Virus record (IMG/VR): IMGVR_UViG_3300028534_000019
Coordinates: 31,091-95,090 of that record
Origin: a virus
Lineage: Duplodnaviria; Heunggongvirae; Uroviricota; Caudoviricetes
Direction: 5' to 3' (one strand)
DNA length: 64,000 nucleotides
A program made the translations under genes and the position numbers. Under the pieces are notes generated by a model. That model searched no databases. It worked only from the letters and a program-made list of their open reading frames with translations, and was not told where the DNA came from. Positions 1,345-32,455 of this stretch are shown piece after piece. Within the stretch, counting starts at the first letter, position 1; every line of letters starts with the position of its first letter.

Positions 1345-2358
1345 ATGTTAGATTTTAACAGCAACTCATTAGATTGGGATTCACTAGAAAAAAATTTAGG
1401 TGCGGATGTCAAAGACAAACCAAAGAAAAACTACAAAGATGATAGATTGTGGAGATTAGCTCAAGATGAAAATGGAGCAGGTGGAGCAATTATCAGATTA
1501 CTACCAGACCCTGAGGGTAAACCATTCATCAGACTTTACAAACACGCTTTTAGTTCATATGACCCTATTAAGAAAAGACAAAGATGGTATATTGGTACTT
1601 CACCACAAACTATTGAACAACCTTGTCCAGCTAGTGATTTATGGCAGTCTTTAATGGGAATTGGTACAGAAGAAGCAAAACAAGAGGCTAGAAGTTTTAA
1701 TAGAAGTATTAAATATATGTGTAACATCAAAGTTATTAAAGACCCAGCAAACCCACAAAATGAGGGTAAAATTTTCTTATGGGAATTTGGTACAAAACTT
1801 AAAGATAAATTTATGGCGGCTCTCAACCCATCAGAAACAGAAAGACAAATGGGAGAAGAACCAAAACAACTTTTCAATCCATTTACAGGGTGTAATGTAA
1901 AACTCAAAATTAAAAAAGTAGCTGGATTCCCTAACTATGATGAAACTGAAATTATGGGTGTAAGTGCTATTTATGAAAATGGAGATGTTGCCAAAGAAGA
2001 TATTCTTGCTAATGGGCATAAACTTTCAGAGTTCTTAAAACCTGATGCTTTTGATTCATATGAAGAACTTAAAGGTAAACTTAAATATGTTCTTGAAACA
2101 TATAAACCTAAACATCTTGATGAAGTTGTTTTTAGAAATGCTGTTGCACCTCTTATTAGTGGAACTAGTGGAACTAATGAGGAAGCACCAAAAACAGAAA
2201 GTGTTAAAGAAAATGTTGTTGATAGTGTAGATGTATCTCAAACTGAAACACCTGCTAATGATGTTCAAGAAACACCAAAAGTAGAAACAAAACAAGATAC
2301 AACCCAATCAGCACCATCAGCACAAAGTGATGATTTATCATTCTTAGAAGACCTTTAG
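1345..2358 (+). CDS. 32: T4 gp32-like single-stranded DNA-binding protein
   Basis: Blocks match my memory of T4 gp32: GAGGAIIRLLP, NIKVIKDPANPQNEGKIFLWEFG, KIKKVAGFPNYDETE, and an acidic Ser/Asp tail ending DDLSFLEDL. Confidence 0.9.
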   Translation: MLDFNSNSLDWDSLEKNLGADVKDKPKKNYKDDRLWRLAQDENGAGGAIIRLLPDPEGKPFIRLYKHAFSSYDPIKKRQRWYIGTSPQTIEQPCPASDLWQSLMGIGTEEAKQEARSFNRSIKYMCNIKVIKDPANPQNEGKIFLWEFGTKLKDKFMAALNPSETERQMGEEPKQLFNPFTGCNVKLKIKKVAGFPNYDETEIMGVSAIYENGDVAKEDILANGHKLSEFLKPDAFDSYEELKGKLKYVLETYKPKHLDEVVFRNAVAPLISGTSGTNEEAPKTESVKENVVDSVDVSQTETPANDVQETPKVETKQDTTQSAPSAQSDDLSFLEDL

Positions 2359-2368
2359 TCTTCTAAGA
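2342..2368 (+). terminator. Hairpin spanning the gene 32 stop codon (terminator or stability element)
   Basis: TCTTAGAAGAC (2342-2352) and GTCTTCTAAGA (2358-2368) are perfect complements with a 5-nt loop, followed by TTT. There is no long U-tract. Confidence 0.45.
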
Positions 2369-2381
2369 TTTGGATTGTAAA

Positions 2382-3512
2382 ATGAAACATAATTCTATAA
2401 TAGTAATAGATTTTTCTCATTTATCAAGTAGAATGTTATATGTTGCTGTATCACAAGCACATCCAAAAAAGAAAAATGGTAAATTTATTACTTCTGATTT
2501 TGTGAAATATTATAAACATTTGATATTTAATTCTTTACAATCAGTAAATACTAAGTTTAAAGGTGATATAATTATTGCTATGGATGGCAGAGATAATTGG
2601 AGAAAGAAATTTTATCCATTATATAAAGCACATAGGGCAAAAGATAGAGATAAATCTGAAATAAATTTTGCTGAATATTATGAAGAACTTGATAAGGTAG
2701 CAAATGCTTTAGAAAATTATTTCCCTTATAAAGTTATTAAAGTAGATGAAGCAGAAGCAGATGATATTGCTGGGGTTATAAGTAATACTTATGGTAATGA
2801 AATGAATATAACTTTAGTTACATCAGACCACGATTGGCAACAAGTACAAGCAGAAAATGATTTAATTACATTTTTTGACCCAATTAAAAGACTTGAAATA
2901 GAAATATCAGCAGATATGCAGGAAATTATTGATACACCTGAGGGTAAAATGTCAAGATTTACAGTAATTCATACCTTATTAGGTGATGATGGGGATAATG
3001 TACCGGGTGTTGTTAAATATACTGAATTTTCAGATAGTTTTATTTCTTTCTTAAAAGAAAATGGTATATATGATGTATCAGTTAAGAATTTTCATAAACT
3101 GAGTATGGCAGATGAACTACTTCAAAAATTTGATGTTTATAAAGTAGTTAAATCAGGGAAGAAAAAAGGGCAATTTTCAGATATTAAAGATATTTACAAA
3201 ACAAAAGCATTCGGAAAAGTTAAGGCTGAAAAAGTTTCACAAAATTCTGAAACACTTAATAAGTTTTTAGATTCTGATGAAATGTATAGAGATAATTTTA
3301 AAAGAAATGCTGTTTTAGTTGATTTCAATAAAATTCCAAAATTTGTAGAAGAAAAAATACTACAAGAATATAAAACAAAAAATAATCTTGCTAAAAATAA
3401 CAAGATATTAGAATATTTTATAAATGAAGGTTTGGGTGAGATGGTTCAAAAAGTTCATCTTTTTTATGGTGACTCAGATGAATCATCACTTGATGATTTT
3501 TTAGAATGGTAG
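2382..3512 (+). CDS. rnh: RNase H / FEN-type 5'-3' exonuclease (T4 rnh-like)
   Basis: Motifs IVIDFSHL, DGRDNWRKKFYPLYKAHR, EADDIAG, LVTSDHDWQQ and LLGDDGDNVPGV. The ATG at 2382 is preferred over the TTG at 2370. The C-terminus is SLDDFLEW. Confidence 0.8.
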   Translation: MKHNSIIVIDFSHLSSRMLYVAVSQAHPKKKNGKFITSDFVKYYKHLIFNSLQSVNTKFKGDIIIAMDGRDNWRKKFYPLYKAHRAKDRDKSEINFAEYYEELDKVANALENYFPYKVIKVDEAEADDIAGVISNTYGNEMNITLVTSDHDWQQVQAENDLITFFDPIKRLEIEISADMQEIIDTPEGKMSRFTVIHTLLGDDGDNVPGVVKYTEFSDSFISFLKENGIYDVSVKNFHKLSMADELLQKFDVYKVVKSGKKKGQFSDIKDIYKTKAFGKVKAEKVSQNSETLNKFLDSDEMYRDNFKRNAVLVDFNKIPKFVEEKILQEYKTKNNLAKNNKILEYFINEGLGEMVQKVHLFYGDSDESSLDDFLEW

Positions 3513-4883: not shown

Positions 4884-5633
4884 ATGTATATACCAAGAAG
4901 AGAATTTGATGATGAACCAAAAATAATTATTTTTAGTGGTGCTGGATTGGATGCCCCATCAGGATTAAAAACTTTTAGGGGTTCTGATGGTTTATGGGAT
5001 AGCCACAAAATACAAGATATTTGTACTGAAAGTACTTGGAAACAAAATTTTGAAGAAGTTCATAATTTTTATAATGGTTTAAGAAATAAATTAGAAAAAG
5101 CACAACCAAATAAAGCACATTTAAAAATAAAAGAATTATATGAAAAGTACCCTGATAGTGTTCTAAATATTACAATGAATATATCAGACTTTTTTGAAAG
5201 GTTAGAAGTTCCAGTTCTTCATATTCACGGAGAACTTAAAAAAATGGAATGTTATGCTTGTGGTACTAAATGGGATATTGGGTATAAGCAGTGGGATATT
5301 GAAAAAGATAGGTGTCCTAAATGCAATAGTAGAAAAGGTGTGAAACCATCTATTGTATTTTTTGGTGGTCAAGCACCTATGTATAGCTACTTGTGGCGTG
5401 CTTTTGAGCATACTATGAATAAAGATACTATTGTGATTGTTATTGGTACTCAGGGTAATGTAGTGAATGTAGAAGAGAATTTAATAGGTACTCCTTGTAA
5501 GAAAATTCTTTGTAATATGGAAGCATCAGCAGATATTAATGTAAAAAAATGTGGTTTTGATAAGGTGTACTATGAAAGTATAGAAACAGCAATAGACAAA
5601 ATTATGGATGATATTGAAGAATGGAAAAAATAA
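4884..5633 (+). CDS. Sir2-family NAD-dependent deacylase (CobB-like sirtuin)
   Basis: FSGAGLDAPSGLKTFRG (GAGxS...FR), VLHIHG (catalytic His), Zn site CYAC...CPKC, and PSIVFFGG. Confidence 0.8.
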   Translation: MYIPRREFDDEPKIIIFSGAGLDAPSGLKTFRGSDGLWDSHKIQDICTESTWKQNFEEVHNFYNGLRNKLEKAQPNKAHLKIKELYEKYPDSVLNITMNISDFFERLEVPVLHIHGELKKMECYACGTKWDIGYKQWDIEKDRCPKCNSRKGVKPSIVFFGGQAPMYSYLWRAFEHTMNKDTIVIVIGTQGNVVNVEENLIGTPCKKILCNMEASADINVKKCGFDKVYYESIETAIDKIMDDIEEWKK

Positions 5634-6088
5634 AAATATTCACAAGTTACTATTCTAATATTAACAAAATCAGAGAGAATTATCCTGATTTTGTTTTAAT
5701 TTCAATTAGTGGTGGTTTGGAAAATAATATTATAACTTTAATAGATGATTGGGATAAAAGGTTAGCACCTAAAAAAGATTTCTTCTTAGAGTATAAAAAT
5801 TCAAAAGAAGGTTTACCACGAGAGATTAAATATGTAAAAGAATTTAATGATAAAGTTCTATATAAAGATAAAATAAAAATAATTATAAACTCTTGGTTAG
5901 AAAAATATCCAAACAAAACTATTGTAATGCTTTGTTATGAACATCCTAAAGATTTTTGTCATAGACAAATAGTAGCTAAAGAAATTGAAACTGTTTTTAA
6001 TGTTGATGTAAAAGAATTATTTTTTGAAAATTATGAAAGAATAGATTATAAAATGTTTCCTAAAGGCTTAGATGAAGATGAATGGTAA
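5621..6088 (+). CDS. DUF488-like protein
   Basis: VMLCYEHPKDFCHRQIVAKEI resembles the DUF488 C(x)E...CHR signature. Overlaps the Sir2 gene by 13 nt. Confidence 0.5.
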   Translation: MEKIKIFTSYYSNINKIRENYPDFVLISISGGLENNIITLIDDWDKRLAPKKDFFLEYKNSKEGLPREIKYVKEFNDKVLYKDKIKIIINSWLEKYPNKTIVMLCYEHPKDFCHRQIVAKEIETVFNVDVKELFFENYERIDYKMFPKGLDEDEW

Positions 6089-6165
6089 TTATTAATTTTT
6101 TATTTAATATTGTTTTAATCTAAATCATATTATAATTTCATCATATTTAAGGAAAAGGCTATAAT

Positions 6166-6639
6166 ATGAAAAAAGAATTAAAAATAGATATATTAGATAA
6201 TCTACAAAGAAATAGTGTTTGTGTTATTTTTAAACCAAGTGATAGTGTTTCACATATACTTATTTTGGAAGAATTAGTAAATAGAGTAGTATCAAGTGAA
6301 GTGATATTAAAAAGAGATACACTTGAGTATCTTAGAGATTCAGAAATAGAAATATATCCATTAGTTTATATGTCAAAAAATGATTTTGATGAATTACCTC
6401 AAAATGTCAAAGCAAGAGTTAGTTGTGTTGATGGTGAGATGTTATTTGAAAGTGTAGAAGATGATAGACAATTATCTAAAACAACCTTTTCTATACAAAT
6501 AGAAGATAAAGAATATACAAAAGATGAACTTTTAAAAGAAGTTGTTATGAGAATGAGTAATTTAGAAGATGGTACTTATGCTAGTACACCTGATGATTAT
6601 GATGACTTTTATAGTTCTTACAGTTTTAAAAAGATTTAA
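6166..6639 (+). CDS. Hypothetical acidic protein
   Basis: 157-codon ORF with AAGGAAAAGG upstream. Confidence 0.6.
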   Translation: MKKELKIDILDNLQRNSVCVIFKPSDSVSHILILEELVNRVVSSEVILKRDTLEYLRDSEIEIYPLVYMSKNDFDELPQNVKARVSCVDGEMLFESVEDDRQLSKTTFSIQIEDKEYTKDELLKEVVMRMSNLEDGTYASTPDDYDDFYSSYSFKKI

Positions 6640-11741: not shown

Positions 11742-12089
11742 ATGCTTTATACTTACAGAATTAAAAAAATACACAAAATATATGATGGTGATACAATTAC
11801 AGCAGAACTTGATTTAGGATTTAAGATTTCATTTATTGAAAAGATTAGATTGTCTTTTATTGATGCTCCTGAAATAAGAGGGGAAGAAAGAGAAGAAGGA
11901 TTAAAATCAAGATTATGGTTAGTAGAACATTTAAACTCAGCTATATCTAAAGGTGATGATGTTTTTGTTAGAACAAATAAAGATAGCCAAGGTAAATATG
12001 GAAGATATTTAGGGGATATTATAATTAATGGGGAGTCACTTAATCTAAAGATGGTTGAAGAGGGTTATGCTGAACTTTATAAAAAGTAA
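11742..12089 (+). CDS. Staphylococcal-nuclease (SNase/thermonuclease)-like nuclease
   Basis: YDGDTIT, RLSFIDAPE, GKYGRYLGDI and MVEEGYAELY match SNase-fold signatures. Confidence 0.7.
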   Translation: MLYTYRIKKIHKIYDGDTITAELDLGFKISFIEKIRLSFIDAPEIRGEEREEGLKSRLWLVEHLNSAISKGDDVFVRTNKDSQGKYGRYLGDIIINGESLNLKMVEEGYAELYKK

Positions 12090-12099
12090 AGGTTTTATT

Positions 12100-13872
12100 A
12101 TGGAAGGAATATTTAATAAATTAAAAGAACATAATAAAGATGTTGTACTTAGTGATGAAGAGAAAAATAAAGTTTTAAGTGTTATAGATATAGAGAAAAA
12201 TAAAGAGGGTTTATATGTAGATGCCTTTGGTATGCCTATATCGCATAATGGGTTAAGAGATTTAAAAAAAGAGAAAACACAAATAAATCTTTCAGAAACA
12301 TTAATAAATGAAATTAAAACATCATATTTAGATTATTATTATTTTAGAGAAAATTATTGTAAAATTGTTACTAAAAAAGGTATTAAAAGACCTGAGCCAA
12401 GACCATACCAAAAAAGGTTAGAAGATGATTTAGTAACAGGTGAAGATGTTTTAGCATTTTGGCCGAGACAATCAGGAAAATCTGTAACTATTTCAACTTA
12501 TCTATTATGGAAAGCAATTACAACACCTAATATTAATATTGGTATAGCGGCAAATGTTCAAAAATTAGCTATGGAAGTATTAGACAAAATAAAAAATATA
12601 TTTTTGGAGTTACCTATTTGGATGAAGCCGGGTATAAAGGTTTGGAATAAAGGTTCTATTGAATTTGAAAATGGTACAAGAATTTTAACCTCAGCAACTA
12701 ATGGTGATGCTTTTAGGGGGTTTACTATTAATATATTATATGTTGATGAGGTTGCTTTTATTAGACATAGTGTGTGGGAAGAATTTGCTGATTCTGTTTT
12801 CCCTGCTCAAGAAGCACTTATGGAAAAACAAACTATTATGTCAAGTACGGCTGGTGGGCTTAATCATTGGTATCATTTAGTAGAGGGTGCTAGAAAGGGT
12901 AAAAATGGTTATAGAATAGCTGAAGCAAGTTGGAAAGAAGTTCCTAGATGGAAAAAAGATGGTACTCTTAAAACACCTGATGAATTTAAGGCTGAAATAA
13001 TAGCTAAAAATGGAGAGATGTTTTTCCAACAAAATTTTGGTAACTCTTTTTTAGGTAGTTCTAAAACTTTAATAGATTCACAAGCATTAAAAAATATTGA
13101 ACCTATGGATGATGATGAAATTTTGTTTGATAATGTTTTTAATGGACTAAGAATTTTTAAAGAGCCAAAACCTAATCATAATTATATAGTTACTTGTGAC
13201 CCCAAAAAAGAGGGTTTGGATAGTGCTGGATTACAAGTTGTTGATGTTACAAATTTACCTTTTGAACAAGTAGCATCAGCACAATTACACGAGAGTTATT
13301 TAACAATTCCTGGTAAATTAAATGATTTAGGGTTGTATTATAATAAGGCTATGATAGTATGTGAAAATAATGTAGCTGAGTCTATACCTAGTACTGTATA
13401 TTATAATTATGAATATGAGGGTGAAGTCTTTATAGAAAAAGATAGTAAGGGTCGCCCTAAAAAGGAAATGGGCATTAGGACAACTACCAAAACAAAAAGA
13501 TTAGGTTTAACTCTATTAAAGAAATTTGTAGAGAATGGAAACCTAATAATAAATGATACAAAAACATTAGATGAATTATTTAACTTCATTGAATATAAAG
13601 ATGGTATATATAAAGCAGAAGAGGGTTATCACGATGACCTTGTTATGTCATTAATGCTTGTTTTTGCTCCATTTTTAGATTTTAAAAACTTTGATGATTT
13701 TAGAGGTTTTGTTGATTATCTTGATAAAAAAGAAAAACAACAAGAAGAGAATGATAAAGAGATGGAAGAATTTATGGATTTAGGTTTTAGTTCTGATGAT
13801 GATTTGGAAGATGACGGGCCGTTTACTAAGGATATTTGGGGAAATAGAGATATGGTTGGTGGCTTCATATAA
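12100..13872 (+). CDS. 17: Terminase large subunit (T4 gp17-like)
   Basis: Walker A FWPRQSGKSVT. WNKGSIEFENGTRILTSATNGDAFRGFTINILYVDEVAFI parallels the T4 gp17 block, and the C-terminal nuclease region has YHDDLVMSL. The ATG at 12100 (after AAAGG) is preferred over 12055. Confidence 0.9.
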   Translation: MEGIFNKLKEHNKDVVLSDEEKNKVLSVIDIEKNKEGLYVDAFGMPISHNGLRDLKKEKTQINLSETLINEIKTSYLDYYYFRENYCKIVTKKGIKRPEPRPYQKRLEDDLVTGEDVLAFWPRQSGKSVTISTYLLWKAITTPNINIGIAANVQKLAMEVLDKIKNIFLELPIWMKPGIKVWNKGSIEFENGTRILTSATNGDAFRGFTINILYVDEVAFIRHSVWEEFADSVFPAQEALMEKQTIMSSTAGGLNHWYHLVEGARKGKNGYRIAEASWKEVPRWKKDGTLKTPDEFKAEIIAKNGEMFFQQNFGNSFLGSSKTLIDSQALKNIEPMDDDEILFDNVFNGLRIFKEPKPNHNYIVTCDPKKEGLDSAGLQVVDVTNLPFEQVASAQLHESYLTIPGKLNDLGLYYNKAMIVCENNVAESIPSTVYYNYEYEGEVFIEKDSKGRPKKEMGIRTTTKTKRLGLTLLKKFVENGNLIINDTKTLDELFNFIEYKDGIYKAEEGYHDDLVMSLMLVFAPFLDFKNFDDFRGFVDYLDKKEKQQEENDKEMEEFMDLGFSSDDDLEDDGPFTKDIWGNRDMVGGFI

Positions 13873-13925: not shown

Positions 13926-14552
13926 ATGAGAAAGAAATTTAATGAAGATAAGAACAAAACTTATGAGAGTAAAGAACACTCTTTACATAAAAAGAAGATT
14001 GTAAAAAATCAAGACTATACAAAATTTAGGTTTTTTATAGGAACTTTTGATAATCAAACACCTAAGTTTCATTTAATATTAAATGATTTATATGATTCTA
14101 ATGAAAAAGATGAATTAGAATTAAGAATTATGTCACCAGTTGGATTGGTTATTGAATGTCAGCAAGTTGTGAATATAATGAATAACAAATTTAATGGTAG
14201 AACAACAGCATATATTGAAAGCCACGCTAGTTCAGCAGGTGCTATTGTTTTTGCTAATGCTGATAAAAGAGTTATATATGAAAATTCAAGAATAATGTTT
14301 CACAACTATTCAGGTGGTTATGGTGGTAAATTTCAAGATATTAAAGATAGATTAGATTTTGATGAAAAACATATTATTTCTTTTTTGAGTGTTGCTAAAC
14401 AATTCTTAAATAAAAAAGAATGGAAACAAATGGTAAATGGAAAAAACTTTTGGTTTGATGCTTCTGATATGTTAAAAAGAAATATAGCAACTCATATCAT
14501 AGTAGATGGTAAAGAGATGACTAAGAAAGAATATAAAAAATATAAAAAATAA
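13926..14552 (+). CDS. ClpP-fold serine protease (S14-like)
   Basis: SHASSAGAIVF (catalytic Ser context), NSRIMFHNYSGG (His) and FWFDASDML (Asp region), in ClpP order. Carries an N-terminal basic extension of about 50 aa. Confidence 0.7.
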   Translation: MRKKFNEDKNKTYESKEHSLHKKKIVKNQDYTKFRFFIGTFDNQTPKFHLILNDLYDSNEKDELELRIMSPVGLVIECQQVVNIMNNKFNGRTTAYIESHASSAGAIVFANADKRVIYENSRIMFHNYSGGYGGKFQDIKDRLDFDEKHIISFLSVAKQFLNKKEWKQMVNGKNFWFDASDMLKRNIATHIIVDGKEMTKKEYKKYKK

Positions 14553-16601: not shown

Positions 16602-17051
16602 ATGATATATTCAAATAATAAAAAAGTAAAACACGACTATGAAATAATTGAAACATTTGAGGCAGGTGTTGTTTTGAGCGGTCCGCAAGTAAAATCAATT
16701 AGAAAAGGTTCTTTAAGCCTTAAAGGTTCTTATGTTAGTCTTGATGATGGTGTTTTATCATTAAAACAATACTCACTTGCTAGACCTGATTATTTGGATG
16801 CTTTTAGTTCTTTTGATGATAAACCAATAAAATTTTTACTCAAAAAAAGAGAGATTAAAAAATTACAAAAAAAGATTCAAGAAAAAGGTTTAACATTATC
16901 TATAACAAAAGTTTATCAACCTGAAAATACTAGATTTATTAAGGCTGAGTTAGTTCTTGTGAGAGGTAAAAAACTATATGATAAAAGAGAAGATTTAAAA
17001 AAGAAAACACAAGAAATGGATATGAAAAAGGCTATAAAATATGATAGATAA
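16602..17051 (+). CDS. smpB: SmpB (tmRNA-binding protein)
   Basis: NNKKVKHDYEIIETFEAGVVLSGPQVKSIRKGSLSLKGSYV matches the conserved SmpB N-terminal block (NKKA.HDY.I...EAGI.L.G.EVKS.R). Size is 149 aa with a basic C-terminal tail. Confidence 0.9.
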   Translation: MIYSNNKKVKHDYEIIETFEAGVVLSGPQVKSIRKGSLSLKGSYVSLDDGVLSLKQYSLARPDYLDAFSSFDDKPIKFLLKKREIKKLQKKIQEKGLTLSITKVYQPENTRFIKAELVLVRGKKLYDKREDLKKKTQEMDMKKAIKYDR

Positions 17052-17250
17052 TCTAAAAAGTGCTGATGAAATATATTTAGTAGTACAGTTTGGAGCAAAA
17101 GATTTTAACAATAGAACACAAGAATTGATTGATGAAAATTATATTCCATTTAGTGATGTTGCTGTTCAAAGTTTTCACGATGAATTTTGCTTTTCACAAC
17201 AGTTTATAAAAAATCCAAAATACATAGAAGAAACAAAAAGGAAAATATAA
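17041..17250 (+). CDS. Hypothetical protein
   Basis: 69-codon ORF overlapping the smpB end by 11 nt. Confidence 0.45.
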   Translation: MIDNLKSADEIYLVVQFGAKDFNNRTQELIDENYIPFSDVAVQSFHDEFCFSQQFIKNPKYIEETKRKI

Positions 17251-18041
17251 TGTTAATAGTACCTGTTGGTTTGCCTGGTTCAGGAAAAACTGTTTTATCA
17301 AGAAAATTTAATACAGTTATAAATGCTGATGAATTGTTTAAGGATAATTATACATTAGATGATTTAATAAATTATATAAAAGAATATAATTATACAGTAA
17401 CAGATGTTTATTTGGATGGTTTATTTATTACAAGGAATTTAGTTAAGAAATTGATTGAAACTTTTGATTATTATATTAGATTAGTATATTTTAAACCTAA
17501 TATAGAAAATTGTATCTACAATGATTTATCAAGAAATAGAGAAAAAGATAGTGTTAATATAATTTATGGTTCTGATTTAAGTTTTATGAAAGAAAGTTAT
17601 TTTAGAAATAAAATAAGAGAAACAATGGAAGTATATAAGGCTGATTATGTAGAATATATAAAAGAAGAAAATAACTTTCAAAATTATATAGAAACACAAG
17701 AGTATGTCTTAGAAGGAAGTACATATGGTACTTGTTGGGATGAAGACGGCCCGTCTGAAACAACACCTGATGACCCATACCATTTTACTGATTTTACAGA
17801 ACTTGAAAAGATATTTAAAAAAATGAATATTCCTTATACAGAAGAAAATTATAATAAAATTGAAAGTGTTATAGAAGAAGAAGATAGAAGTGAGGGTGAT
17901 TATTATGGTGGTTATGCTTATAAAGAGGTTTATAGAGTTGAAGTTACATTATTAATAAAAGCAATACTAAAAGAGTTTTTTGGTATTGATAAAACAGATA
18001 TGGCATATATTAAAAAAGAATACCCTGAACTAATATTTTAA
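17250..18041 (+). CDS. P-loop kinase-like protein (polynucleotide-kinase-like N-terminus) with C-terminal YPELIF motif
   Basis: MLIVPVGLPGSGKT is a Walker A at the extreme N-terminus, as in T4 Pnk-type kinases. The ATG at 17250 overlaps the previous stop (TAATG). Ends ...IKKEYPELIF*. Confidence 0.55.
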   Translation: MLIVPVGLPGSGKTVLSRKFNTVINADELFKDNYTLDDLINYIKEYNYTVTDVYLDGLFITRNLVKKLIETFDYYIRLVYFKPNIENCIYNDLSRNREKDSVNIIYGSDLSFMKESYFRNKIRETMEVYKADYVEYIKEENNFQNYIETQEYVLEGSTYGTCWDEDGPSETTPDDPYHFTDFTELEKIFKKMNIPYTEENYNKIESVIEEEDRSEGDYYGGYAYKEVYRVEVTLLIKAILKEFFGIDKTDMAYIKKEYPELIF

Positions 18042-18056: not shown

Positions 18057-18569
18057 ATGGTAGAAGAAAATAATTTTAGAGAAACAAAAACACATATTTA
18101 TTTTTGGGGTAGTATCTATTCTCAATGGTACACTTCAAAAAACCAATTCAAAGAAGATGGATTTATTTTTCAAAATGCTGAACAGTATATGATGATGAAA
18201 AAAGCAGAACTTTTTAAAGATTATGATGTATTAGAAAAAATGAAACAAACAAGTAATCCAAAGGTATTAAAAAAATTGGGTAGAGAAATTAAAGGTTTTG
18301 ATGAAGATATTTGGAATTTTAATAAAATGGATATTGTTGAAAGAGGGAATTTTTTAAAGTTCTCTCAAAATCCTAAGTTATTAGAAAAACTTATAGCACA
18401 CAAAAATAAACATATAGTAGAAGCATCACCTTATGATAAGATTTGGGGTATTGGGCTTCATTGGTCAGATGATAAGGTATTAAATGAAAGTACTTGGAAT
18501 GGTGAAAATCTTTTAGGTAAATGTATTATGTCAGCAAGAGATAAAATTTTAAATCCAAAATCTATATAA
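18057..18569 (+). CDS. NADAR (YbiA/DUF1768) family protein
   Basis: IYFWGSIYSQWY, FQNAEQYMMMKKAELF, GNFLKFSQNPKL and IVEASPYDKIWGIG are the family signatures as I recall them. Confidence 0.8.
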   Translation: MVEENNFRETKTHIYFWGSIYSQWYTSKNQFKEDGFIFQNAEQYMMMKKAELFKDYDVLEKMKQTSNPKVLKKLGREIKGFDEDIWNFNKMDIVERGNFLKFSQNPKLLEKLIAHKNKHIVEASPYDKIWGIGLHWSDDKVLNESTWNGENLLGKCIMSARDKILNPKSI

Positions 18570-18639: not shown

Positions 18640-20490
18640 ATGGCAGTTATTGGTATAGATTTAGGAACGACAAATAGTGCTGTTTCAGTTTATGAAGTAG
18701 GGGAATTTAAAATTATTCCTAATGCTGAGGGTAAAAATACAACACCTAGTATTGTAGCATTTACAGATAAAGGGGATGTATTAGTAGGGGAATCAGCAAA
18801 AAGACAAGCAGTCACAAACCCTGAAAAAACTATTGAAGCAATTAAAAGAATTATGGGTATGCAATTTAATGAACCTAGATGTAAAGAGGCTCAAGAAAAA
18901 GTACAATATAAAATTGTAGATAAAAATGGTTTGGCCGCTGTTGATGTTGATGGTAAGATTTATACACCACAAGAAATTTCAGCTAAAATCCTTACAAAAC
19001 TAAAAGATGATGCAGAAGCATTTATTGGTAAAGAAGTTACAGATGCTGTAATTACAGTTCCAGCATACTTTAATGATGCTCAGAGAAAGGCGACACAAGA
19101 GGCAGGCGTTATTGCAGGGCTTAATGTACTAAGAATTATTAATGAACCTACTTCGGCCGCTCTTGCTTATGGTTTGGACAAAAAAGGTGAGGAAAATATT
19201 CTTGTTTATGATTTTGGTGGTGGTACTTTTGATGTATCTGTATTAGAAATTGGAGATGGTACTTTTGAAGTTCTTTCAACTGATGGTAATGCTTTCTTAG
19301 GTGGTAAAGACTTTGACCAAATTTTAGTTAATTATATTGCTGAATATTTTAAAGAGAAACAGGGTGTTGATTTAAGAAATGATAAAATGGCACTTCAAAG
19401 ATTATATGATGCTTCAGAAAATGCTAAAAAAGAGTTATCAAGTGTTGTAGAAACTGAAATTAACTTACCATTTATTACTATGACAGAAGCCGGCCCGCAG
19501 CATCTTGTTTTAAAAATTTCAAGAGGTAAATTTGAGGGGTTAGTACAAAATCTTGTAGATGAAACTATTGAACATATTACAACAGCATTACAAGACGCTG
19601 GTTTAAGTGTAGATGATATTAGTGAATTGATTATGGTTGGTGGCTCAACAAGAATACCTTTAGTACAAGAGGCAGTTTCAAAGTATTTTAAAGGTAAAAC
19701 TCTTAATAAATCTGTTAATCCTGATGAAGTTGTAGCCGCTGGTGCTTCAATTCAAGGTGGTGTATTAACAGGAGATGTAAAAGATGTTCTTCTTCTTGAT
19801 GTTACACCATTATCACTTGGTATTGAAACTATGGGTGGTATTGCTACTAAAATCATCCCAAAAGGTACAACTATTCCTGTTAAAAAATCAGAAATCTTTA
19901 GTACAGCAGTTGATAATCAACCAGCAGTTAGTATTGTAGTAGTACAAGGTGAAGCAAAATTAGCAGAAGATAATAAATCTTTAGGACAATTTAATCTTGA
20001 GGGTATAACACCAGCTAAAAAAGGTGTACCACAAATTGAAGTTAATTTTGATGTTGATTCTAATGGTGTTTTGAGTGTATCAGCTATTGATAAAGGAACA
20101 GGTAAAGAACAGAAAATAACAATTACAGGTTCGACAGGTTTAAGTGAAGAAGAAATTAGAAAGATGATTGATGATGCTGAAAAACAAAATCAAGAAAAGG
20201 CTGAAAAAATTAAAGCAATTGAAGCAAAAAATGAATTGGATGCTACTCTTTCAAGAATTAAAAACTTTAATGATGAAGAAAAAAATGAAGTGCTATCAGC
20301 TAAAATTTCTGATGTTGAAGAATATGTAAAAGAAGATAGAACAGCAGAAGAAATTAGAAAAATTAGAGATGAACTTGAAGAAGTTTATTTAAAAGCATTT
20401 GAAGAGAAATCAAAAAGAAATGAAGGTGCTGAGGTAAAAGAAAGCACTGAAAATAATGATGATGTTATTGATGCTGAAATTGAAGAATAA
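18640..20490 (+). CDS. dnaK: Hsp70 chaperone DnaK (canonical bacterial type)
   Basis: [69 protein letters not shown], and an acidic tail [10 protein letters not shown]. Confidence 0.95.
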
Positions 20491-20501
20491 AAGAGGAAAA
20501 A

Positions 20502-21305
20502 TTGAAAAAATTATATAAAATTCTTGAAATTGAAGAAACTTCTACAACAGTAGAAATAAAAAAAGCATATAGAAAATTAGCTAAAAAATACCACCCTGAT
20601 GTTTGTAAAGAAGAGGGTGGTGAAGATAAGTTTAAAGAAATTAATAGAGCATATGAAGTTCTAAGCAATCCACAAGAAAAACAAAAGTATGATAGATTTG
20701 GTGATGAAATGTATGAAAAAATGGGGTCAGGTGGTGGAAGACCTAATCCAAATGCTGATGAGTTTGCAGAAGCAATGGCATCATTTTTCAACCAAAAGGG
20801 AAATCCCCGACAAGGTAATCCTTTTGGTATGGGTGGTAATCCTTTTATTCATACAACAATTCAAGCATATATTTCGATAGAAGATTTATTTAAAGGTACT
20901 TCTATACAATTACAAGATGGTACTAAAGTAAAAATACCACCTAGAACAATACCGGGTAGTAGGGTAAGAGTTAAAGGCAAAGGTATGTCAGATGGTAAAA
21001 ATACAGGAGATTTATTTATTATCATAACACCAAAAAATAATGATAAAGAATTTGTTGAGAATGATACTATTATAAAGATTATCAAAATTGATTTAGTTAG
21101 TATGATTTTTGGAAATGAAATAAAATATAATCATTATGGTAAAGATTTAATTGTTACTGTTCCAAAAAATACAAAGCCCGGTGACTTTGTACAAATTCCC
21201 AATCAGGGCTTAGGTACTCAGGGTTCATTAATTTTACATTTAGATTTAGAATTACCAAAAGCAGAAGATTTAGATGAAGAAAAAGTAAAAGAATTATTTA
21301 ATTAA
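20502..21305 (+). CDS. J-domain co-chaperone (DnaJ/CbpA-like, no zinc-finger domain)
   Basis: TTG start after AAGAGG. J domain is YKILEIEETSTTVEIKKAYRKLAKKYHPDV with HPD, followed by a G/F-rich linker and a DnaJ C-terminal beta domain. No CxxCxGxG repeats. Confidence 0.85.
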   Translation: MKKLYKILEIEETSTTVEIKKAYRKLAKKYHPDVCKEEGGEDKFKEINRAYEVLSNPQEKQKYDRFGDEMYEKMGSGGGRPNPNADEFAEAMASFFNQKGNPRQGNPFGMGGNPFIHTTIQAYISIEDLFKGTSIQLQDGTKVKIPPRTIPGSRVRVKGKGMSDGKNTGDLFIIITPKNNDKEFVENDTIIKIIKIDLVSMIFGNEIKYNHYGKDLIVTVPKNTKPGDFVQIPNQGLGTQGSLILHLDLELPKAEDLDEEKVKELFN

Positions 21306-21364: not shown

Positions 21365-21769
21365 ATGGCAAAAGAAAAAAGTTATGGGGTTGCTCCTTAT
21401 TTAATTATAAATGGGCAATATTATATATTGTTAAATAAAACATCAGAACATAGTAGATACAATTTCTTCAAAGGTAAAATTGAAGAGGGTGAAACTATTG
21501 CTCAATGTGCCAAAAGAGAATTTTGGGAAGAAACAGGTGTAGAAGTTGATGAGAGAGATTTTGAAGAATATTTTTTCCAAAAGTCTTCTAAAAAAGATGT
21601 TGGTATTTTTTTAATTAATTGGTCTAAATATATTAATAAAAAATTTCAATTTCAAAAAAGAGAAATTTGGGCTTCTTATTGGGTAGAGGTTGATGATGTT
21701 CAAACATCCAAAAACCAAAAAGAAATTGTTGATTCTATTGAATCTTTTTTTAAAAATAAATCTGAGTAA
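21365..21769 (+). CDS. Nudix hydrolase
   Basis: Complete Nudix box GKIEEGETIAQCAKREFWEETGV (Gx5Ex7REUxEExGU). Confidence 0.85.
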   Translation: MAKEKSYGVAPYLIINGQYYILLNKTSEHSRYNFFKGKIEEGETIAQCAKREFWEETGVEVDERDFEEYFFQKSSKKDVGIFLINWSKYINKKFQFQKREIWASYWVEVDDVQTSKNQKEIVDSIESFFKNKSE

Positions 21770-24447: not shown

Positions 24448-25548
24448 ATGTTAGTTCAAAATAAAAAAGTTCCAAAAGAAACATTAGAGTTATTGGACTC
24501 TAAAATAGAAGAATTTGAAAAAAATACAAATTCAACTGTTTTATATATTACAATTACAGGTTCTGTTCTTTATGGTACTGATAATGAAAATAGTGATTTA
24601 GATTTTAAAGGTATTTTTATGCCTAATCTAAAAGAAGTGCTTATTGGTAATACACCTAGTGCTTTTGTTTTTAATTCAAATACAAAAGATAAAAACTCTT
24701 CTGATGATATTGATTTAACATTACACCCTGTAAATGACTTCTTTAATCATCTTAGAAAATCTGAAACAGGTGCTGTTGATTTACTTTTTAGTATGTTTAG
24801 AGAAGATACTATTGTTTTTGATGATGGTATTTTCACGAACTTTATGAAGAAAAATTATCAAAAGTTTAGAAATTCTAATATGAAAAGTTTTATCGGTTAT
24901 GCTGTTGGTCAAACTAAAAAATTTGGGATTAAAGGTGCTAGATATGAAGAGTTAGATGTTTTTTATAAAGATTGTGTTAATTATTTTAATCTTGCTCCAA
25001 AAGAAAATAAATTAGGTGAATATTGGGATTTTCTTGAACTAAAAGCCCAAGGTAAAAAATATATTAAGTTTACAAAAGCAGAAGGTGCTAGAAGAAATGA
25101 TGGTAGTAGTAATATCATTGATTATATTTCTGTTCTTGGTAAACTATATCATAAAGATGTAACAGTAGGTTATTTTTTAGAAAGAGTTTCTAAATTTTAT
25201 AATCAATTTGGTAATAGAACTAAAACAGTAGCTAAAACTGAATCAAAAACAGATTGGAAAGCAATGAGCCACGCCCTTAGAGTAGCTATGGAAGTTAAAG
25301 AGTTACTTCAATTTGGTTTTATTAAATTTCCATTGACTTATGCTGATGAGATTAAAGAAGTTAAATTTGGTAACAGAGAAGAACAAGAAACATTAGATAA
25401 AATTAGAGATGTATTGGGTGAAGTTGATACAATATTAGAAAATATTGATAAAGATAACTTTCCTTGTGAAATGAGTGAAGAATTACTTAAAAAATTAAAA
25501 TGGGAAGTAATTCTTCTATATAAAGAGTTTTTAGATTTAGGTTTTTAA
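24448..25548 (+). CDS. Nucleotidyltransferase (RlaP/PF10127-like, Pol-beta superfamily)
   Basis: ITITGSVLYGTDNENSDLDFKGIF gives the GS...G...D-x-D NTase signature of the RNA-ligase-associated family. Confidence 0.65.
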   Translation: MLVQNKKVPKETLELLDSKIEEFEKNTNSTVLYITITGSVLYGTDNENSDLDFKGIFMPNLKEVLIGNTPSAFVFNSNTKDKNSSDDIDLTLHPVNDFFNHLRKSETGAVDLLFSMFREDTIVFDDGIFTNFMKKNYQKFRNSNMKSFIGYAVGQTKKFGIKGARYEELDVFYKDCVNYFNLAPKENKLGEYWDFLELKAQGKKYIKFTKAEGARRNDGSSNIIDYISVLGKLYHKDVTVGYFLERVSKFYNQFGNRTKTVAKTESKTDWKAMSHALRVAMEVKELLQFGFIKFPLTYADEIKEVKFGNREEQETLDKIRDVLGEVDTILENIDKDNFPCEMSEELLKKLKWEVILLYKEFLDLGF

Positions 25549-26664: not shown

Positions 26665-27576
26665 ATGGAAGAACAAATAGCGATTGATTTAGGCTATTCA
26701 ACATCAAAAGTTGCTTATGCTGATAAAATAGCAAAATTCCCAACTGCTGTTTCTTTTGCTACTGATGTAGGTACATCATATGGTGAAGGGAATATTTATG
26801 ACTTTGAGGGAGATAAGTATTATGTGGGTAGTGAAGCCGCTGATGCTGAGGCTTTTACAACTATGGATTTTAAATTTTTATATAAATTTGCTCCTCTTCT
26901 TATCTATCATATTTTAAGTAAATTTGATAAAGCAGAACTTGAAAAACCTATTGTTGTAAAAACAGGATTGGCAATTGTTGATTGGCATAAAAAAGATGAT
27001 TTTATTGAAAGAATTTCAAAAATTGAAGTGAATGGGCAAACTGTTGAAACAACACCCATTCTTATTCCTCAAGGTGCTGGATGTGCTGTTGATTGGGTTT
27101 CATCAGATAATGATGGAGAATGGCCGGACAATCTTACAGTAGTTGATATTGGTTATAATACTATTAACCTTATATCATTTTTAGAGGGTAAACCAATTAG
27201 AAAAAATATGAAAAGTTACCCAGGACACGGTGTTTCTAGTATAATTAAACCTTTTACTAGTTATCTTGAAAATACTTTTGGTACAACATTTTCAGAACAA
27301 GAAGCAATTAAATTTTTTGTTAAAGGTACTTTTAAATATAATGGTGAAGACCAACCTAAAGTATCAGAAAAAATTACAGAATTAAAATCACAATTTGTTA
27401 AAAAAATGTTTCAATCTGTTTTAGTTTCTGATAAAAAACTTCTTGCTATGTCAGATGTAGTGCTTATTGCTGGTGGTGGTGCTTATTTACTTCAAGATAT
27501 TCCATTCCCGCCAAATGTTGAGTTTGTTGATTCTCCTTATGAGTTCAGTAATACTCGTGGTTATTTAATTTCATAA
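26665..27576 (+). CDS. Actin-like ATPase (ParM/Alp family)
   Basis: Actin-fold phosphate and adenosine motifs in order: IAIDLGYSTSKVAY, VVDIGYNTINL, VLIAGGGAYLL, and a C-terminal NTRGYLI (compare ParM ...VNGMYLIG). Confidence 0.7.
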   Translation: MEEQIAIDLGYSTSKVAYADKIAKFPTAVSFATDVGTSYGEGNIYDFEGDKYYVGSEAADAEAFTTMDFKFLYKFAPLLIYHILSKFDKAELEKPIVVKTGLAIVDWHKKDDFIERISKIEVNGQTVETTPILIPQGAGCAVDWVSSDNDGEWPDNLTVVDIGYNTINLISFLEGKPIRKNMKSYPGHGVSSIIKPFTSYLENTFGTTFSEQEAIKFFVKGTFKYNGEDQPKVSEKITELKSQFVKKMFQSVLVSDKKLLAMSDVVLIAGGGAYLLQDIPFPPNVEFVDSPYEFSNTRGYLIS

Positions 27577-28442: not shown

Positions 28443-28889
28443 ATGATTTTAGATAAAATCACAAAAGAACAATTATTAGCAAGAAAGAATAGAGATACCT
28501 TTAAAACAGGTATCTTAACTACATTAATGTCAGAAGTATCTATTATAGGTAAGAATAAAGGTAATAGAAAAACAACTGATGAAGAAGCAATTGCTGTTAT
28601 AAAGAAATTTATTTCAAATGCTGAAAATAACATTGAATCTCTTCAAGGTTCTCATAATTGGGAAAATTGTACTGAAAGTATTCAAGAATTTCAAGATGAA
28701 ATAGAATTACTTCAAGGTTTTTTACCAAAACAAATGACCGAAGATGAGTTAAAAGTATCTATTGAAGTTATGGTTTCAAAAGGTGCTAACAATATTGGTG
28801 CTATTATGGGTACTCTTAAAAAAGAATATGGTGGATTATATGATGGCAAGATGGCTAGTAAACTAGCTAAAGAAGTTTTATCAAAATAA
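28443..28889 (+). CDS. GatB/YqeY-domain protein
   Basis: LLARKNRDTFKTGILTTLMSEV, TDEEAIAVIKKFISNAENNIE, FLPKQMTEDELK, IGAIMGTLKKEYGGLYDGKMASKLAKEVL. Confidence 0.65.
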   Translation: MILDKITKEQLLARKNRDTFKTGILTTLMSEVSIIGKNKGNRKTTDEEAIAVIKKFISNAENNIESLQGSHNWENCTESIQEFQDEIELLQGFLPKQMTEDELKVSIEVMVSKGANNIGAIMGTLKKEYGGLYDGKMASKLAKEVLSK

Positions 28890-31567: not shown

Positions 31568-32455
31568 ATGGATAAAGGTTTATTTGGAATTATTGGAGCA
31601 GGTGTATTAGTAGTTATGCTATTAATTTTAGGTGCTACATCAGTTTATACAGTTGATGAGGGTAAAGTTGGTATTGTAAAGACTTGGGGTAAAGCAGTAA
31701 AGCAAGTTAATCCCGGACTTCACTTCAAAATGCCTATTGCTGATGAGGTTGTAGAGATTGAGGTAAGAACAAGAAAAAATGTTGAAACTATGAGTATTGC
31801 TACAAGTGAGCAAATGGCGGCAAAAGCAACTGTTTCTATGAACTGGACTGTTAATAAAGCAAGTGTTTTAGAACTCTATAAGAAATATGGCTCACTTGAC
31901 CAATTTGAAAGTAGAATTTTAGACCCAAAACTTAGAGATGCCACAAAAGAGGGTATTGCTAAATTTACAGCAGAACAAAATATTAAGAACAGAGGTGTAA
32001 GCACACTCAAAGTTAAGGAATTATTTATTAACCAAATTAAAGGTTATCCTATTACTGTTAATGGTTTTCAAATTGAAGATATTCAATTAAGTAAAAAATA
32101 TCTTGCTTCAATTGATGCTAAACAAACAGCTAAAAATGAAAGAGATGCTGAAAAATTTAAACTTGAAAAACAAGCCCTTGAAGCACAAAGAGCAGTAAAT
32201 ACAGCAAATGCTGAAAGAGATGCCGCTAAAGCAAGAGCAGATGGTGTGGCTTATAAAATTGAAGCAGAAGCAAAAGCAAATGCTAAGAAAATTGCCCTTA
32301 TTGCTGGAGCAGAAGCAAAAGCAATTAAACAAAAAGCACAAGCACTTAAAAATAACCCTGCTATTATAGACTATATGAGAGCAGAAAAATGGAGTGGGAA
32401 TTATCCTACTACTATGATGGGTAGCAACCCAAACATTCTTATGAAATTAAAATAA
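31568..32455 (+). CDS. SPFH/band-7 (prohibitin/HflC-like) membrane protein
   Basis: N-terminal TM helix, then YTVDEGKVGIVKTWGKAVKQVNPGLHFKMPIADEVVEIEVRTR, and an Ala/Lys/Glu-rich coiled coil at the C-terminus. Confidence 0.8.
   Translation: MDKGLFGIIGAGVLVVMLLILGATSVYTVDEGKVGIVKTWGKAVKQVNPGLHFKMPIADEVVEIEVRTRKNVETMSIATSEQMAAKATVSMNWTVNKASVLELYKKYGSLDQFESRILDPKLRDATKEGIAKFTAEQNIKNRGVSTLKVKELFINQIKGYPITVNGFQIEDIQLSKKYLASIDAKQTAKNERDAEKFKLEKQALEAQRAVNTANAERDAAKARADGVAYKIEAEAKANAKKIALIAGAEAKAIKQKAQALKNNPAIIDYMRAEKWSGNYPTTMMGSNPNILMKLK

Follow-up and report, generated by a model that had tools for sequence, protein, structure and literature searches.

The 64-kb window analysed here (the whole stretch of 64,000 nucleotides from the IMG/VR Caudoviricetes record IMGVR_UViG_3300028534_000019) carries a dnaK gene that is followed, after a spacer of 11 nucleotides (nt), by a gene for a J-domain protein (Table 1). 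An earlier note on this DNA had described the first product as a canonical DnaK with an acidic tail, and the second as a TTG-initiated J-protein that has an HPD J-domain, a glycine/phenylalanine (G/F) linker and C-terminal domains and lacks a zinc centre. All of these features are present. The DnaK open reading frame (ORF) passes the NCBIfam equivalog cut-offs (NF001413, 870.9 bits versus 648; TIGR02350, 846.8 bits versus 822.55) and its acidic C-terminal tail is common to Campylobacterota DnaKs in our alignment. When aligned to E. coli DnaK (PDB 2KHO), the phage protein is 58% identical over the aligned columns. The catalytic and allosteric residues D8, T11, K70, P143, R151, E171, D194, T199 and D201 are all as in E. 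coli DnaK, the interdomain linker with D393 is the same in both proteins, and the J-domain contacts R167, N170, T173, E217 and D477 and the arch residues M404 and A429 are kept. The phage DnaK thus looks mechanistically orthodox and is apparently functional.

The J-protein matches the Pfam DnaJ domain at residues 4-64 (E = 2.2e-24), with the HPD motif at residues 31-33 and the equivalent of K48 present in the motif KFKEI. G, F, N and P are abundant in its linker (residues ~68-118), which has nine glycines and five phenylalanines in 51 residues and contains a DEF (DIF-like) motif. The DnaJ_C match (residues 120-252, E = 1.1e-16) covers positions 3-152 of a 152-position profile that we take to span both beta-sandwich domains (C-terminal domains I and II). 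There is a single cysteine (C35) and no PF00684 match, so a CxxCxGxG zinc centre is impossible, and the C-terminal tail, PKAEDLDEEKVKELFN, is short, acidic and helix-like. The N-terminal residues line up one to one with those of the J-proteins of related loci (those of L004 and L005, introduced below, are 33-37% identical to it), which supports the TTG start. With no zinc finger and a score of 156.3 bits against the 377.2-bit cut-off of the class A DnaJ model TIGR02349, it is a class B (type II) protein; proteins of this class have about 260-360 amino acids (aa) and no zinc finger (PMC8215388). The previous description of it as CbpA-like holds for this architecture and fails as a statement of orthology, which we reject on the CbpA model (NF007618, 97.1 bits versus a cut-off of 403). 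The best match in PDB is Thermus thermophilus DnaJ2 (6PSI/4J80), with an E-value of 1.7e-27 and coverage of the J-domain, the linker and C-terminal domain I.

No GrpE-like gene adjoins the pair and the next gene encodes a Nudix hydrolase, as had been noted. A hidden Markov model (HMM) search of the window without filters returned one J-domain and two Hsp70s, the same inventory as before, and its best GrpE score was 7.2 bits (E = 0.32). The second Hsp70 lies further downstream, next to a transfer-messenger RNA (tmRNA) gene.

Structural and replication genes on both sides of the chaperone pair identify the phage as a T4-like myovirus. In addition to the terminase, protease, gp32 and RNase H genes listed in Table 1, the window and its flanks encode a T4 neck protein, gp15, gp19, two T4 baseplate proteins, a tape measure protein, a baseplate hub, gp25 and a gp6-like wedge protein, and a gp23-family capsid gene lies directly upstream of the window start. 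The flanks come from contigs L009 and L007, which add 8.6 kb upstream and 1.5 kb downstream and bring the total sequence covered to ~74 kb. The window has a uniform GC content of ~26% and nearly all of its genes are on one strand. A megablast search of the window against GenBank phages gave no match. The DnaK phylogeny alone points to a host within Campylobacterota.

Table 1. Features of the window, numbered from its first nucleotide.
Feature	Position	Strand	Remarks
gp32 homologue	1345-2358		
RNase H	2370-3512		
SIR2-family protein	4884-5633	+	non-structural gene
TATAAATA octamers	9312, 10383, 11716, 14575, 42924, 42946, 47940, 49655, 53948, 62437	+	late-promoter-like
Large terminase	12055-13872		
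Head-maturation protease	13926-14552		
SmpB (tmRNA protein partner)	16602-17051	+	Pfam SmpB, E = 1.7e-38; 1.6 kb upstream of dnaK
P-loop kinase-like ORF	17187-18041		in the SmpB-NADAR block immediately upstream of dnaK
NADAR domain protein	18057-18569		in the same block as SmpB
dnaK	18640-20490	+	616 aa; ATG start with AAAGGAG upstream; Pfam HSP70, E = 1.7e-230
Spacer AAGAGGAAAAA	20491-20501	+	11 nt; carries a ribosome-binding site; preceded by the dnaK stop TAA (20488-20490) and followed by TTG at 20502
Class B (type II) J-domain protein	20502-21305	+	267 aa; TTG start
Nudix hydrolase	21365-21769	+	Pfam NUDIX, E = 3.6e-14; downstream neighbour, not part of the chaperone pair
RlaP-type RNA-repair nucleotidyltransferase	24448-25548	+	
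Actin-like ALP/ParM-family protein	26665-27576	+	non-structural gene
YqeY-like protein	28443-28889		
SPFH/Band-7 protein	31568-32455	+	non-structural gene
Poly(A) polymerase/CCA-adding-type nucleotidyltransferase (head domain)	38175-39122	+	directly upstream of tmRNA
TATAAATA octamer	39349		~100 nt upstream of tmRNA
tmRNA gene	39452-39772	+	ARAGORN; tag ANNTDYTGNTVLSA; Rfam RF00023, 90.8 bits versus gathering score of 47
Second Hsp70	39844-41706	+	620 aa; Pfam HSP70, E = 4e-141
SspB-fold protein	41706-42164	+	152 aa; begins within TAATG, where its ATG and the TAA that ends the second Hsp70 gene overlap

The T4 late-promoter octamer TATAAATA occurs 13 times on the plus strand, and nine of the 13 occurrences lie 24-49 nt upstream of ORF starts (10 of 13 if the occurrence before the ORF at 62464 is counted). 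This placement suggests that this putative Campylobacterota phage uses a gp55-type late transcription system. Many structural genes have such an octamer, whereas dnaK and the second Hsp70 gene have none immediately in front of them, which argues weakly that the chaperones are not late genes. Scans for sigma-70 promoters and terminators were uninformative in this AT-rich DNA, as the number of sites was no higher than in shuffled sequence. Outside the chaperone genes, the window contains a set of genes for translation and RNA repair, comprising the CCA-adding-type nucleotidyltransferase, the RlaP-type nucleotidyltransferase and the YqeY-like protein.

Related loci and the missing grpE

To separate recent capture from an old phage lineage, the earlier note had proposed a phylogeny of the Hsp70s. 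We constructed a tree by neighbour-joining with 100 bootstraps, in which the window DnaK groups with 13 unnamed metagenomic or phage proteins. The resulting 14-member clade has a bootstrap support of 82/100 and long internal branches, and it lies among Campylobacterota lineages. DnaKs are 69-75% identical to each other within the phage clade, the nearest named bacterial DnaKs are those of the Campylobacterota Sulfurimonas, Lebetimonas, Nautilia and Caminibacter (67-70% identity), and DnaKs of other phyla are 55-58% identical. The placement of the clade and its long internal branches indicate that the DnaK, rather than being a recent capture, has long resided in a lineage of phages whose hosts are presumably Campylobacterota. 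Recent host capture and pseudogenisation of the DnaK are ruled out by the 67-70% identity and the intact residues. Neither Hsp70 in the window is a near-identical recent host copy with inactivated ATPase motifs, an outcome that the earlier note had held up against its own proposal; the key ATPase residues are intact in both.

The phage context of the clade is visible in several of its members. L004, a hydrothermal-vent contig of 63 kb, encodes a T4-family protein, a ClpP-like protease, a lysozyme and, ~2.5 kb beyond dnaJ on its downstream side, a Nudix hydrolase. L005 is an IMG/VR viral contig of 97 kb, and L170 and L171 carry T4 RNA ligase, NADAR and tRNA arrays.

We compared the genes around dnaK within the clade in loci L001-L006, L170, L171 and the window. 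The order Hsp20-DnaK-GrpE-DnaJ is found in L004, L005 and L006, and DnaK-GrpE-DnaJ in L170. In L001, L002 and L003 the order is Hsp20-DnaK-GrpE, and the J-domain protein encoded at a distance of 8 kb is unrelated. In L171 the dnaK gene stands alone, with no grpE or dnaJ up to 10 kb away, and the window has DnaK-DnaJ. Overall, grpE directly follows dnaK in five of the seven distinct related loci and is itself followed by dnaJ in four of those five. The J-proteins of L004 and L005 are of the same short zinc-less type as that of the window. A hairpin is present after dnaK and before grpE in L004 and L170 and is absent from the window. The grpE-dnaJ spacers of the relatives measure 10 nt (AAGGAAGAAT in L005), compared with 11 nt between dnaK and dnaJ in the window. 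The junction AAGAGGAAAAA-TTG is as expected had the hairpin and grpE been excised cleanly and may have arisen in this way, although such an event is unprovable at this divergence.

By parsimony, the missing GrpE is probably a lineage-specific loss. Neither GrpE nor Hsp20 was found in the ~74 kb of window and flanks by tblastn, unfiltered HMM searches or Pfam, and Pfam detected no GrpE in 20 further ORFs. A protein-database search with the L004 GrpE recovered 17 phage-clade GrpE clusters, none of them on the contigs of this phage. A metagenome scan with an alignment of phage GrpEs listed mainly bacterial GrpEs, and the known L001 contig was not among the matches listed.

Several points weigh against this reading. 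The known GrpE of L001 was also missed by the L004 GrpE search, so the sensitivity of that search is limited. The ~74 kb covered belong to a genome of likely more than 150 kb, so a relocated grpE is possible. L171, with no grpE or dnaJ within 10 kb, shows that cassette content is fluid, which makes the term ancestral a parsimony argument. Finally, neighbour-joining is a simple distance method, and the second Hsp70, with its long branch, is placed unreliably in the tree.

The second of these points corresponds to an explicit alternative, namely that a phage GrpE (and perhaps an Hsp20) is encoded elsewhere in the genome and that the phage has a complete DnaK-DnaJ-GrpE machine in a rearranged order. 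T4-like genomes are much larger than the window with its ~10 kb of flank, the huge phages LR756504 and LR756502 have GrpE-like ORFs 10-124 kb from dnaK, and the J-domain gene of L001 is itself 8 kb away from dnaK. Against this, grpE directly follows dnaK in all five related loci that have it, the GrpE clusters of the phage clade did not include one from this phage within the limits of that search, the clade member L171 has no grpE in the 10 kb that flank dnaK on each side, and most DnaK-bearing GenBank phages, including 15 Lak records, have no GrpE match. We regard a relocated grpE as unlikely.

The sequence of the DnaK bears on where its exchange factor would come from. DnaK-type Hsp70s release nucleotide slowly and depend on GrpE, features attributed to two salt bridges (K55-E267 and R56-E264) and to the GrpE signature loop (Mayer 2021 review, PMC8215388). 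We examined these cleft salt bridges, the signature loop (residues 290-295) and the G32 loop. K55, R56 and E267 of the phage DnaK are identical to E. coli, and position 264 is D, as it is in the DnaKs of Sulfurimonas, Nautilia and Caminibacter. The signature loop EAGPQH and the G32 loop are the same as in Sulfurimonas and in the phage relatives that have GrpE. At these sites the members without GrpE (the window and L171) are no different from the phage relatives with GrpE. The retention of these slow-release, GrpE-dependence features suggests that nucleotide exchange on the phage DnaK is most likely performed by host GrpE. Of the two options left by the earlier note, that the phage borrows the host GrpE or works without an exchange factor, the first is on these residues much better supported.

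The related loci have further features of their own. The dnaK of L006 (4542-7702) is split in two by an insertion of ~1.27 kb that contains an ORF for a GIY-YIG (SegE-like) homing endonuclease (5619-6443), and the DnaK matches in Lak-B phages are likewise in two pieces. L004 encodes two paralogous short zinc-less J-proteins (2313-3065 and 12414-13154), one in the cassette and one 7 kb upstream, and it also has a Thg1-family gene. In L001/L002 (1-9171), capsule-export-type genes (Capsule_synth, Poly_export and an ABC transporter pair) adjoin the Hsp20-DnaK-GrpE cassette; this contig has a GC content of 21%, is up to 153 kb long and is a candidate phage, host or other element. The NADAR and HD/AAA_33 proteins found near dnaK in L171 are also present near the window dnaK.

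A second Hsp70 beside a tmRNA gene

The second Hsp70 of the window scores best on DnaK models and falls below the cut-offs (NF001413, 467.6 bits versus 648). Its scores are 386.3 bits versus 708.55 on the HscA model TIGR01991 and 43.7 bits versus 331 on PRK11678, which has the output name "molecular chaperone" and which we take to be the HscC model. Among 5.8 billion protein clusters it has no relative between 44% and 100% identity, and its next-best matches are cellular DnaKs of Nautiliales, Caminibacter and Nitratiruptor (38-44% identity). Compared with the DnaK of the same phage, its nucleotide-binding domain is 45% identical, its beta substrate-binding domain 30% and its lid 19%. No homologue was found in the flanks of the relatives. 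The long branch makes its tree position unreliable, and both duplication and separate capture are possible origins.

The residues D8, T11, K70, P143, R151, R167, N170, E171, T173, D194, T199, D201 and D393 are kept in this protein and its hydrophobic linker reads ILLIDVASLSLG. Changes in the cleft and GrpE elements comprise K55L, R56E, V59E, L257R and G32Q, and the signature loop has a two-residue deletion and is not conserved. The arch carries M404D and A429S, the J-domain contacts carry D477K and E217K, and the acidic tail is lost, the C-terminus being basic (KKLRKKEK). This loss of the salt bridges and of the GrpE signature follows the pattern of HscA and HscC, and by the criteria of PMC8215388 it predicts fast, GrpE-independent exchange. 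The protein is predicted to cycle independently of an exchange factor and to have a different client set. D477K speaks against the protein being an optimal partner of the phage J-protein, in which the K48 equivalent is conserved, and the unfiltered HMM search detected no second J-domain in the window.

The second Hsp70 appears to be a fast-evolving paralogue and is apparently not part of the DnaK-J unit. The earlier suggestion that the phage brings its own folding machine stands as far as the apparently functional DnaK and the class B J-protein are concerned. It does not extend to the second Hsp70, with its D477K change and its separate tmRNA/SspB-fold context.

This context begins with the tmRNA gene, 72 nt upstream of the second Hsp70 gene. 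Its encoded tag, ANNTDYTGNTVLSA, ends in LSA; host-type tmRNA tags end in ...AA. The ORF that overlaps the end of the Hsp70 gene belongs to a family of 63 representative clusters. An SspB fold was seen for it only in an alignment-based model; the single-sequence AlphaFold2 model had a predicted local distance difference test (pLDDT) value of 48. The ORF has no Pfam match and BLASTP against E. coli SspB was negative, while PF04386 matched one of 40 family members weakly (E = 0.007) and hhalign against E. coli SspB gave a probability of 24%. This ORF was also considered as a GrpE-like or J-like cofactor, which was ruled out as it has no GrpE or J-domain signal.

In the contexts of three relatives, the SspB-fold gene is not linked to an Hsp70 or a tmRNA and its neighbours are Metallophos and ThyX. 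This suggests that the tmRNA-Hsp70 block is a lineage-specific insertion. A functional coupling of the tmRNA, the second Hsp70 and the SspB-fold protein is a possibility. We also put forward, as a decidedly improbable idea, that the second Hsp70 is either a GrpE-independent, client-specialised partner of the kit formed by tmRNA, SspB-fold protein and SmpB, or an Hsp110-like exchange factor for the DnaK. In the first case, it would capture or triage nascent chains that bear the unusual ...VLSA tag added by the phage tmRNA. If true, this would be a viral link between Hsp70 and ribosome rescue, or a case of an Hsp70 acting as exchange factor in a bacterial system, neither of which has been described before.

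Proposed mechanism and alternatives

Taking these observations together, we consider it fairly probable that the locus is a streamlined dnaK-dnaJ operon whose products depend on the GrpE of the host, accompanied by an independent, specialised Hsp70. The two-gene operon would derive from a long-carried (hsp20)-dnaK-grpE-dnaJ cassette, with grpE, the hairpin after dnaK and hsp20 having been lost in this phage. The start of dnaJ 11 nt after the dnaK stop suggests that the two genes are co-transcribed, and the weak TTG start suggests that less J-protein than DnaK is made. The C-terminal domains of the J-protein would bind unfolded clients, its HPD J-domain would trigger ATP hydrolysis and the DnaK would clamp the client, with host GrpE presumably releasing the nucleotide. 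The clients are likely to be the phage's own abundant structural and assembly proteins, for which the host chaperone capacity would be limiting. The second Hsp70, with an intact ATPase and linker and without the cleft latches and GrpE contacts, would cycle without an exchange factor in the manner of HscA and HscC.

The pair could instead serve host takeover or counter-defence rather than the folding of phage proteins, by titrating or redirecting HrcA and HspR, which regulate the host heat-shock response, by stabilising or destabilising host factors or by disabling a DnaJ-dependent defence. Precedents are summarised in PMC12619734, which cites work on Rki of the T4-like phage RB43, acting through host DnaK on sigma-32, and a report of a DnaJ-dependent NLR-like defence. 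Stand-alone short J-proteins are also common in viral contigs: short zinc-less J-proteins occur in at least 558 stretches of IMG/VR, and of 80 such loci that were inspected only one has an Hsp70 gene no more than 10 kb away. The absence of TATAAATA directly upstream of dnaK, which sets it apart from many structural genes, agrees with such a role. However, a role restricted to regulation needs a J-domain and not a generalist DnaK with a class B J-protein that has both client-binding domains, and the complete cassette of the relatives, with Hsp20 and GrpE, resembles a general refolding system. PADLOC detected no defence or anti-defence signature, and a defence or anti-defence label for the locus is unsupported. 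Folding and takeover roles are not mutually exclusive; takeover in place of folding appears distinctly unlikely to us.

A further alternative dispenses with GrpE altogether, either because the second Hsp70 acts as an Hsp110-like exchange factor for the DnaK or because the DnaK is independent of exchange factors. This phage is the only one in which GrpE is absent and a divergent second Hsp70 is present, an anti-correlation with n = 1, and L171 has no grpE nearby and yet no second Hsp70 within 10 kb. The salt-bridge and signature residues of the DnaK are the same as in its GrpE-bearing relatives and in host-type DnaKs, which speaks against an independent DnaK. Hsp110-type proteins have an extended insertion in the substrate-binding domain, a C-terminal extension and a degenerate interdomain linker. 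With 620 aa, the second Hsp70 has a normal length and is collinear with the DnaK, without Hsp110-type insertions or extension, and its linker ILLIDVASLSLG and full set of catalytic residues make it look like a cycling Hsp70. Membership of the Hsp110 type was rejected on its length and linker, and we consider a GrpE-free DnaK very improbable. We give next to no credence to the idea that the pair is a decaying, functionless cassette remnant, since the loss of two of four cassette genes, the TTG start and the 33-37% identity of the J-protein to its relatives are set against full-length ORFs with good ribosome-binding sites, conservation of all functional residues checked, a DnaK above strict equivalog cut-offs and a J-protein with its HPD, DIF-like motif and full DnaJ_C match.

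The comparison shows that a T4-like lineage of phages from vents and sulfidic habitats has long carried a near-complete chaperone cassette, and the relatives form a natural deletion series that runs from the full cassette through forms without Hsp20 or without GrpE to DnaK alone. One member has also gained a second, HscA-like "latch-less" Hsp70. These are matched proteins for asking how far viral Hsp70s rely on host co-chaperones, how the specificity between J-proteins and Hsp70s evolves and what an extra Hsp70 is worth. The practical value is that of a comparative and biochemical resource and of a pointer to a rich set of phage genes for proteostasis and ribosome rescue; nothing known is overturned.

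Comparison with known systems

Phage Hsp70 systems are rare and in GenBank are known only from very large uncultured phages. The presence of DnaK and DnaJ in large phages is itself not new. What appears to be new is a T4-like lineage with a near-complete Hsp20-DnaK-GrpE-DnaJ cassette, its reduced DnaK-DnaJ form in this phage, and a phage with a pair of Hsp70 paralogues, the latch-less member of which is encoded beside a tmRNA gene.

The moraphages, large aquatic phages of Bacteroidota, encode DnaK, DnaJ and sometimes Hsp20, for which a role in folding or takeover has been proposed (Arch Virol 2025, PMC12619734). As in the window, their DnaK is full-length and accompanied by DnaJ, and their phage DnaK clade is nested within the host phylum. 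They differ in phage lineage and host phylum, and their DnaKs are read as recent transfers from Flavobacteriales (PMC12619734). That paper does not mention GrpE and reports no second Hsp70 and no tmRNA/SspB neighbourhood (PMC12619734), whereas the clade described here is T4-like and mostly has grpE.

Of 50,697 GenBank phage records, 40 match this DnaK, of which ~21 are credible (15 Lak megaphages and six huge uncultured phages), the separation from host DNA being a judgement from names and sizes, with most of the other records small or draft. The Lak megaphages and the huge phages of 480-735 kb are genuine phage genomes with a full-length Hsp70 and mostly without a GrpE match. Their genomes are 3-10 times larger, they are not T4-like and their records carry no annotation from which a pairing with a J-protein could be read. 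Their DnaKs (accessions MK2500xx, LR7565xx and LR745206) are 46-55% identical to the window DnaK, which suggests that they are probably separate acquisitions. Among the credible records, a GrpE match was obtained for LR756504 and LR756502 only, so a phage DnaK without a phage GrpE is common outside this clade. DnaK chaperones have also been found among the ATPases of mobilome metagenomes, in a study that in addition surveyed 353 huge phage genomes (PMC8297831).

Other phages use a J-domain co-chaperone without an Hsp70 of their own. In 224 cultured jumbo phages, J-domain co-chaperones are predicted to recruit host Hsp70 and no phage Hsp70 is mentioned (PMC7824862). These proteins, and Rki of RB43 (Perrody 2012, cited in PMC12619734), resemble the window J-protein in being J-domain co-chaperones that act on an Hsp70. 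As summarised in these sources, they recruit host DnaK and are not accompanied by an own Hsp70, whereas the window J-protein is coupled to a phage DnaK.

Among cellular systems, the closest in J-protein class is the Thermus thermophilus DnaK-DnaJ2 system (PDB 4J80, 6PSI and 9DVI), in which a class B DnaJ of ~280 aa is the main partner of a canonical DnaK. The Thermus system differs in being cellular and in having GrpE, and the phage J-protein is shorter and related at class level only. The Thermus system also includes an assembly factor, DafA. E. coli CbpA shares the class B architecture of J-domain, G/F linker and two beta-sandwich domains without a zinc finger, but the phage J-protein fails the CbpA equivalog model and is not followed by a CbpM-like gene. 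According to the Mayer 2021 review, DnaJ2 is the zinc-less class B protein that works as the DnaK partner of Thermus (PMC8215388).

HscA and HscC resemble the second Hsp70 in that both salt bridges (K55-E267 and R56-E264) and the GrpE signature are gone and the arch positions 404 and 429 are altered. The second Hsp70 differs from them in having neither the N-terminal extension of HscA nor the lobe-I deletion of HscC, and no dedicated J-protein gene adjoins it. Its neighbour is comparable to the SspB-type adaptor of the T4-like Pseudomonas phage pf16 (PMC5587285). The pf16 protein is close to the SspB of its host and the phage has no tmRNA (PMC5587285), whereas the window protein is recognisable by fold only and is encoded together with a tmRNA and SmpB.

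The earlier note had contrasted the locus with T4, which supplies gp31 to the host GroEL. The contrast is apt because this phage is T4-like, although phage-encoded DnaK and DnaJ had already been described in other large phages (PMC12619734). In T4, and presumably here, a T4-type phage supplies a co-chaperone for the folding of its own proteins. In T4 the protein belongs to the Hsp10/Hsp60 family and only the co-chaperone is phage-encoded; here the phage encodes the ATPase itself and apparently borrows the exchange factor.

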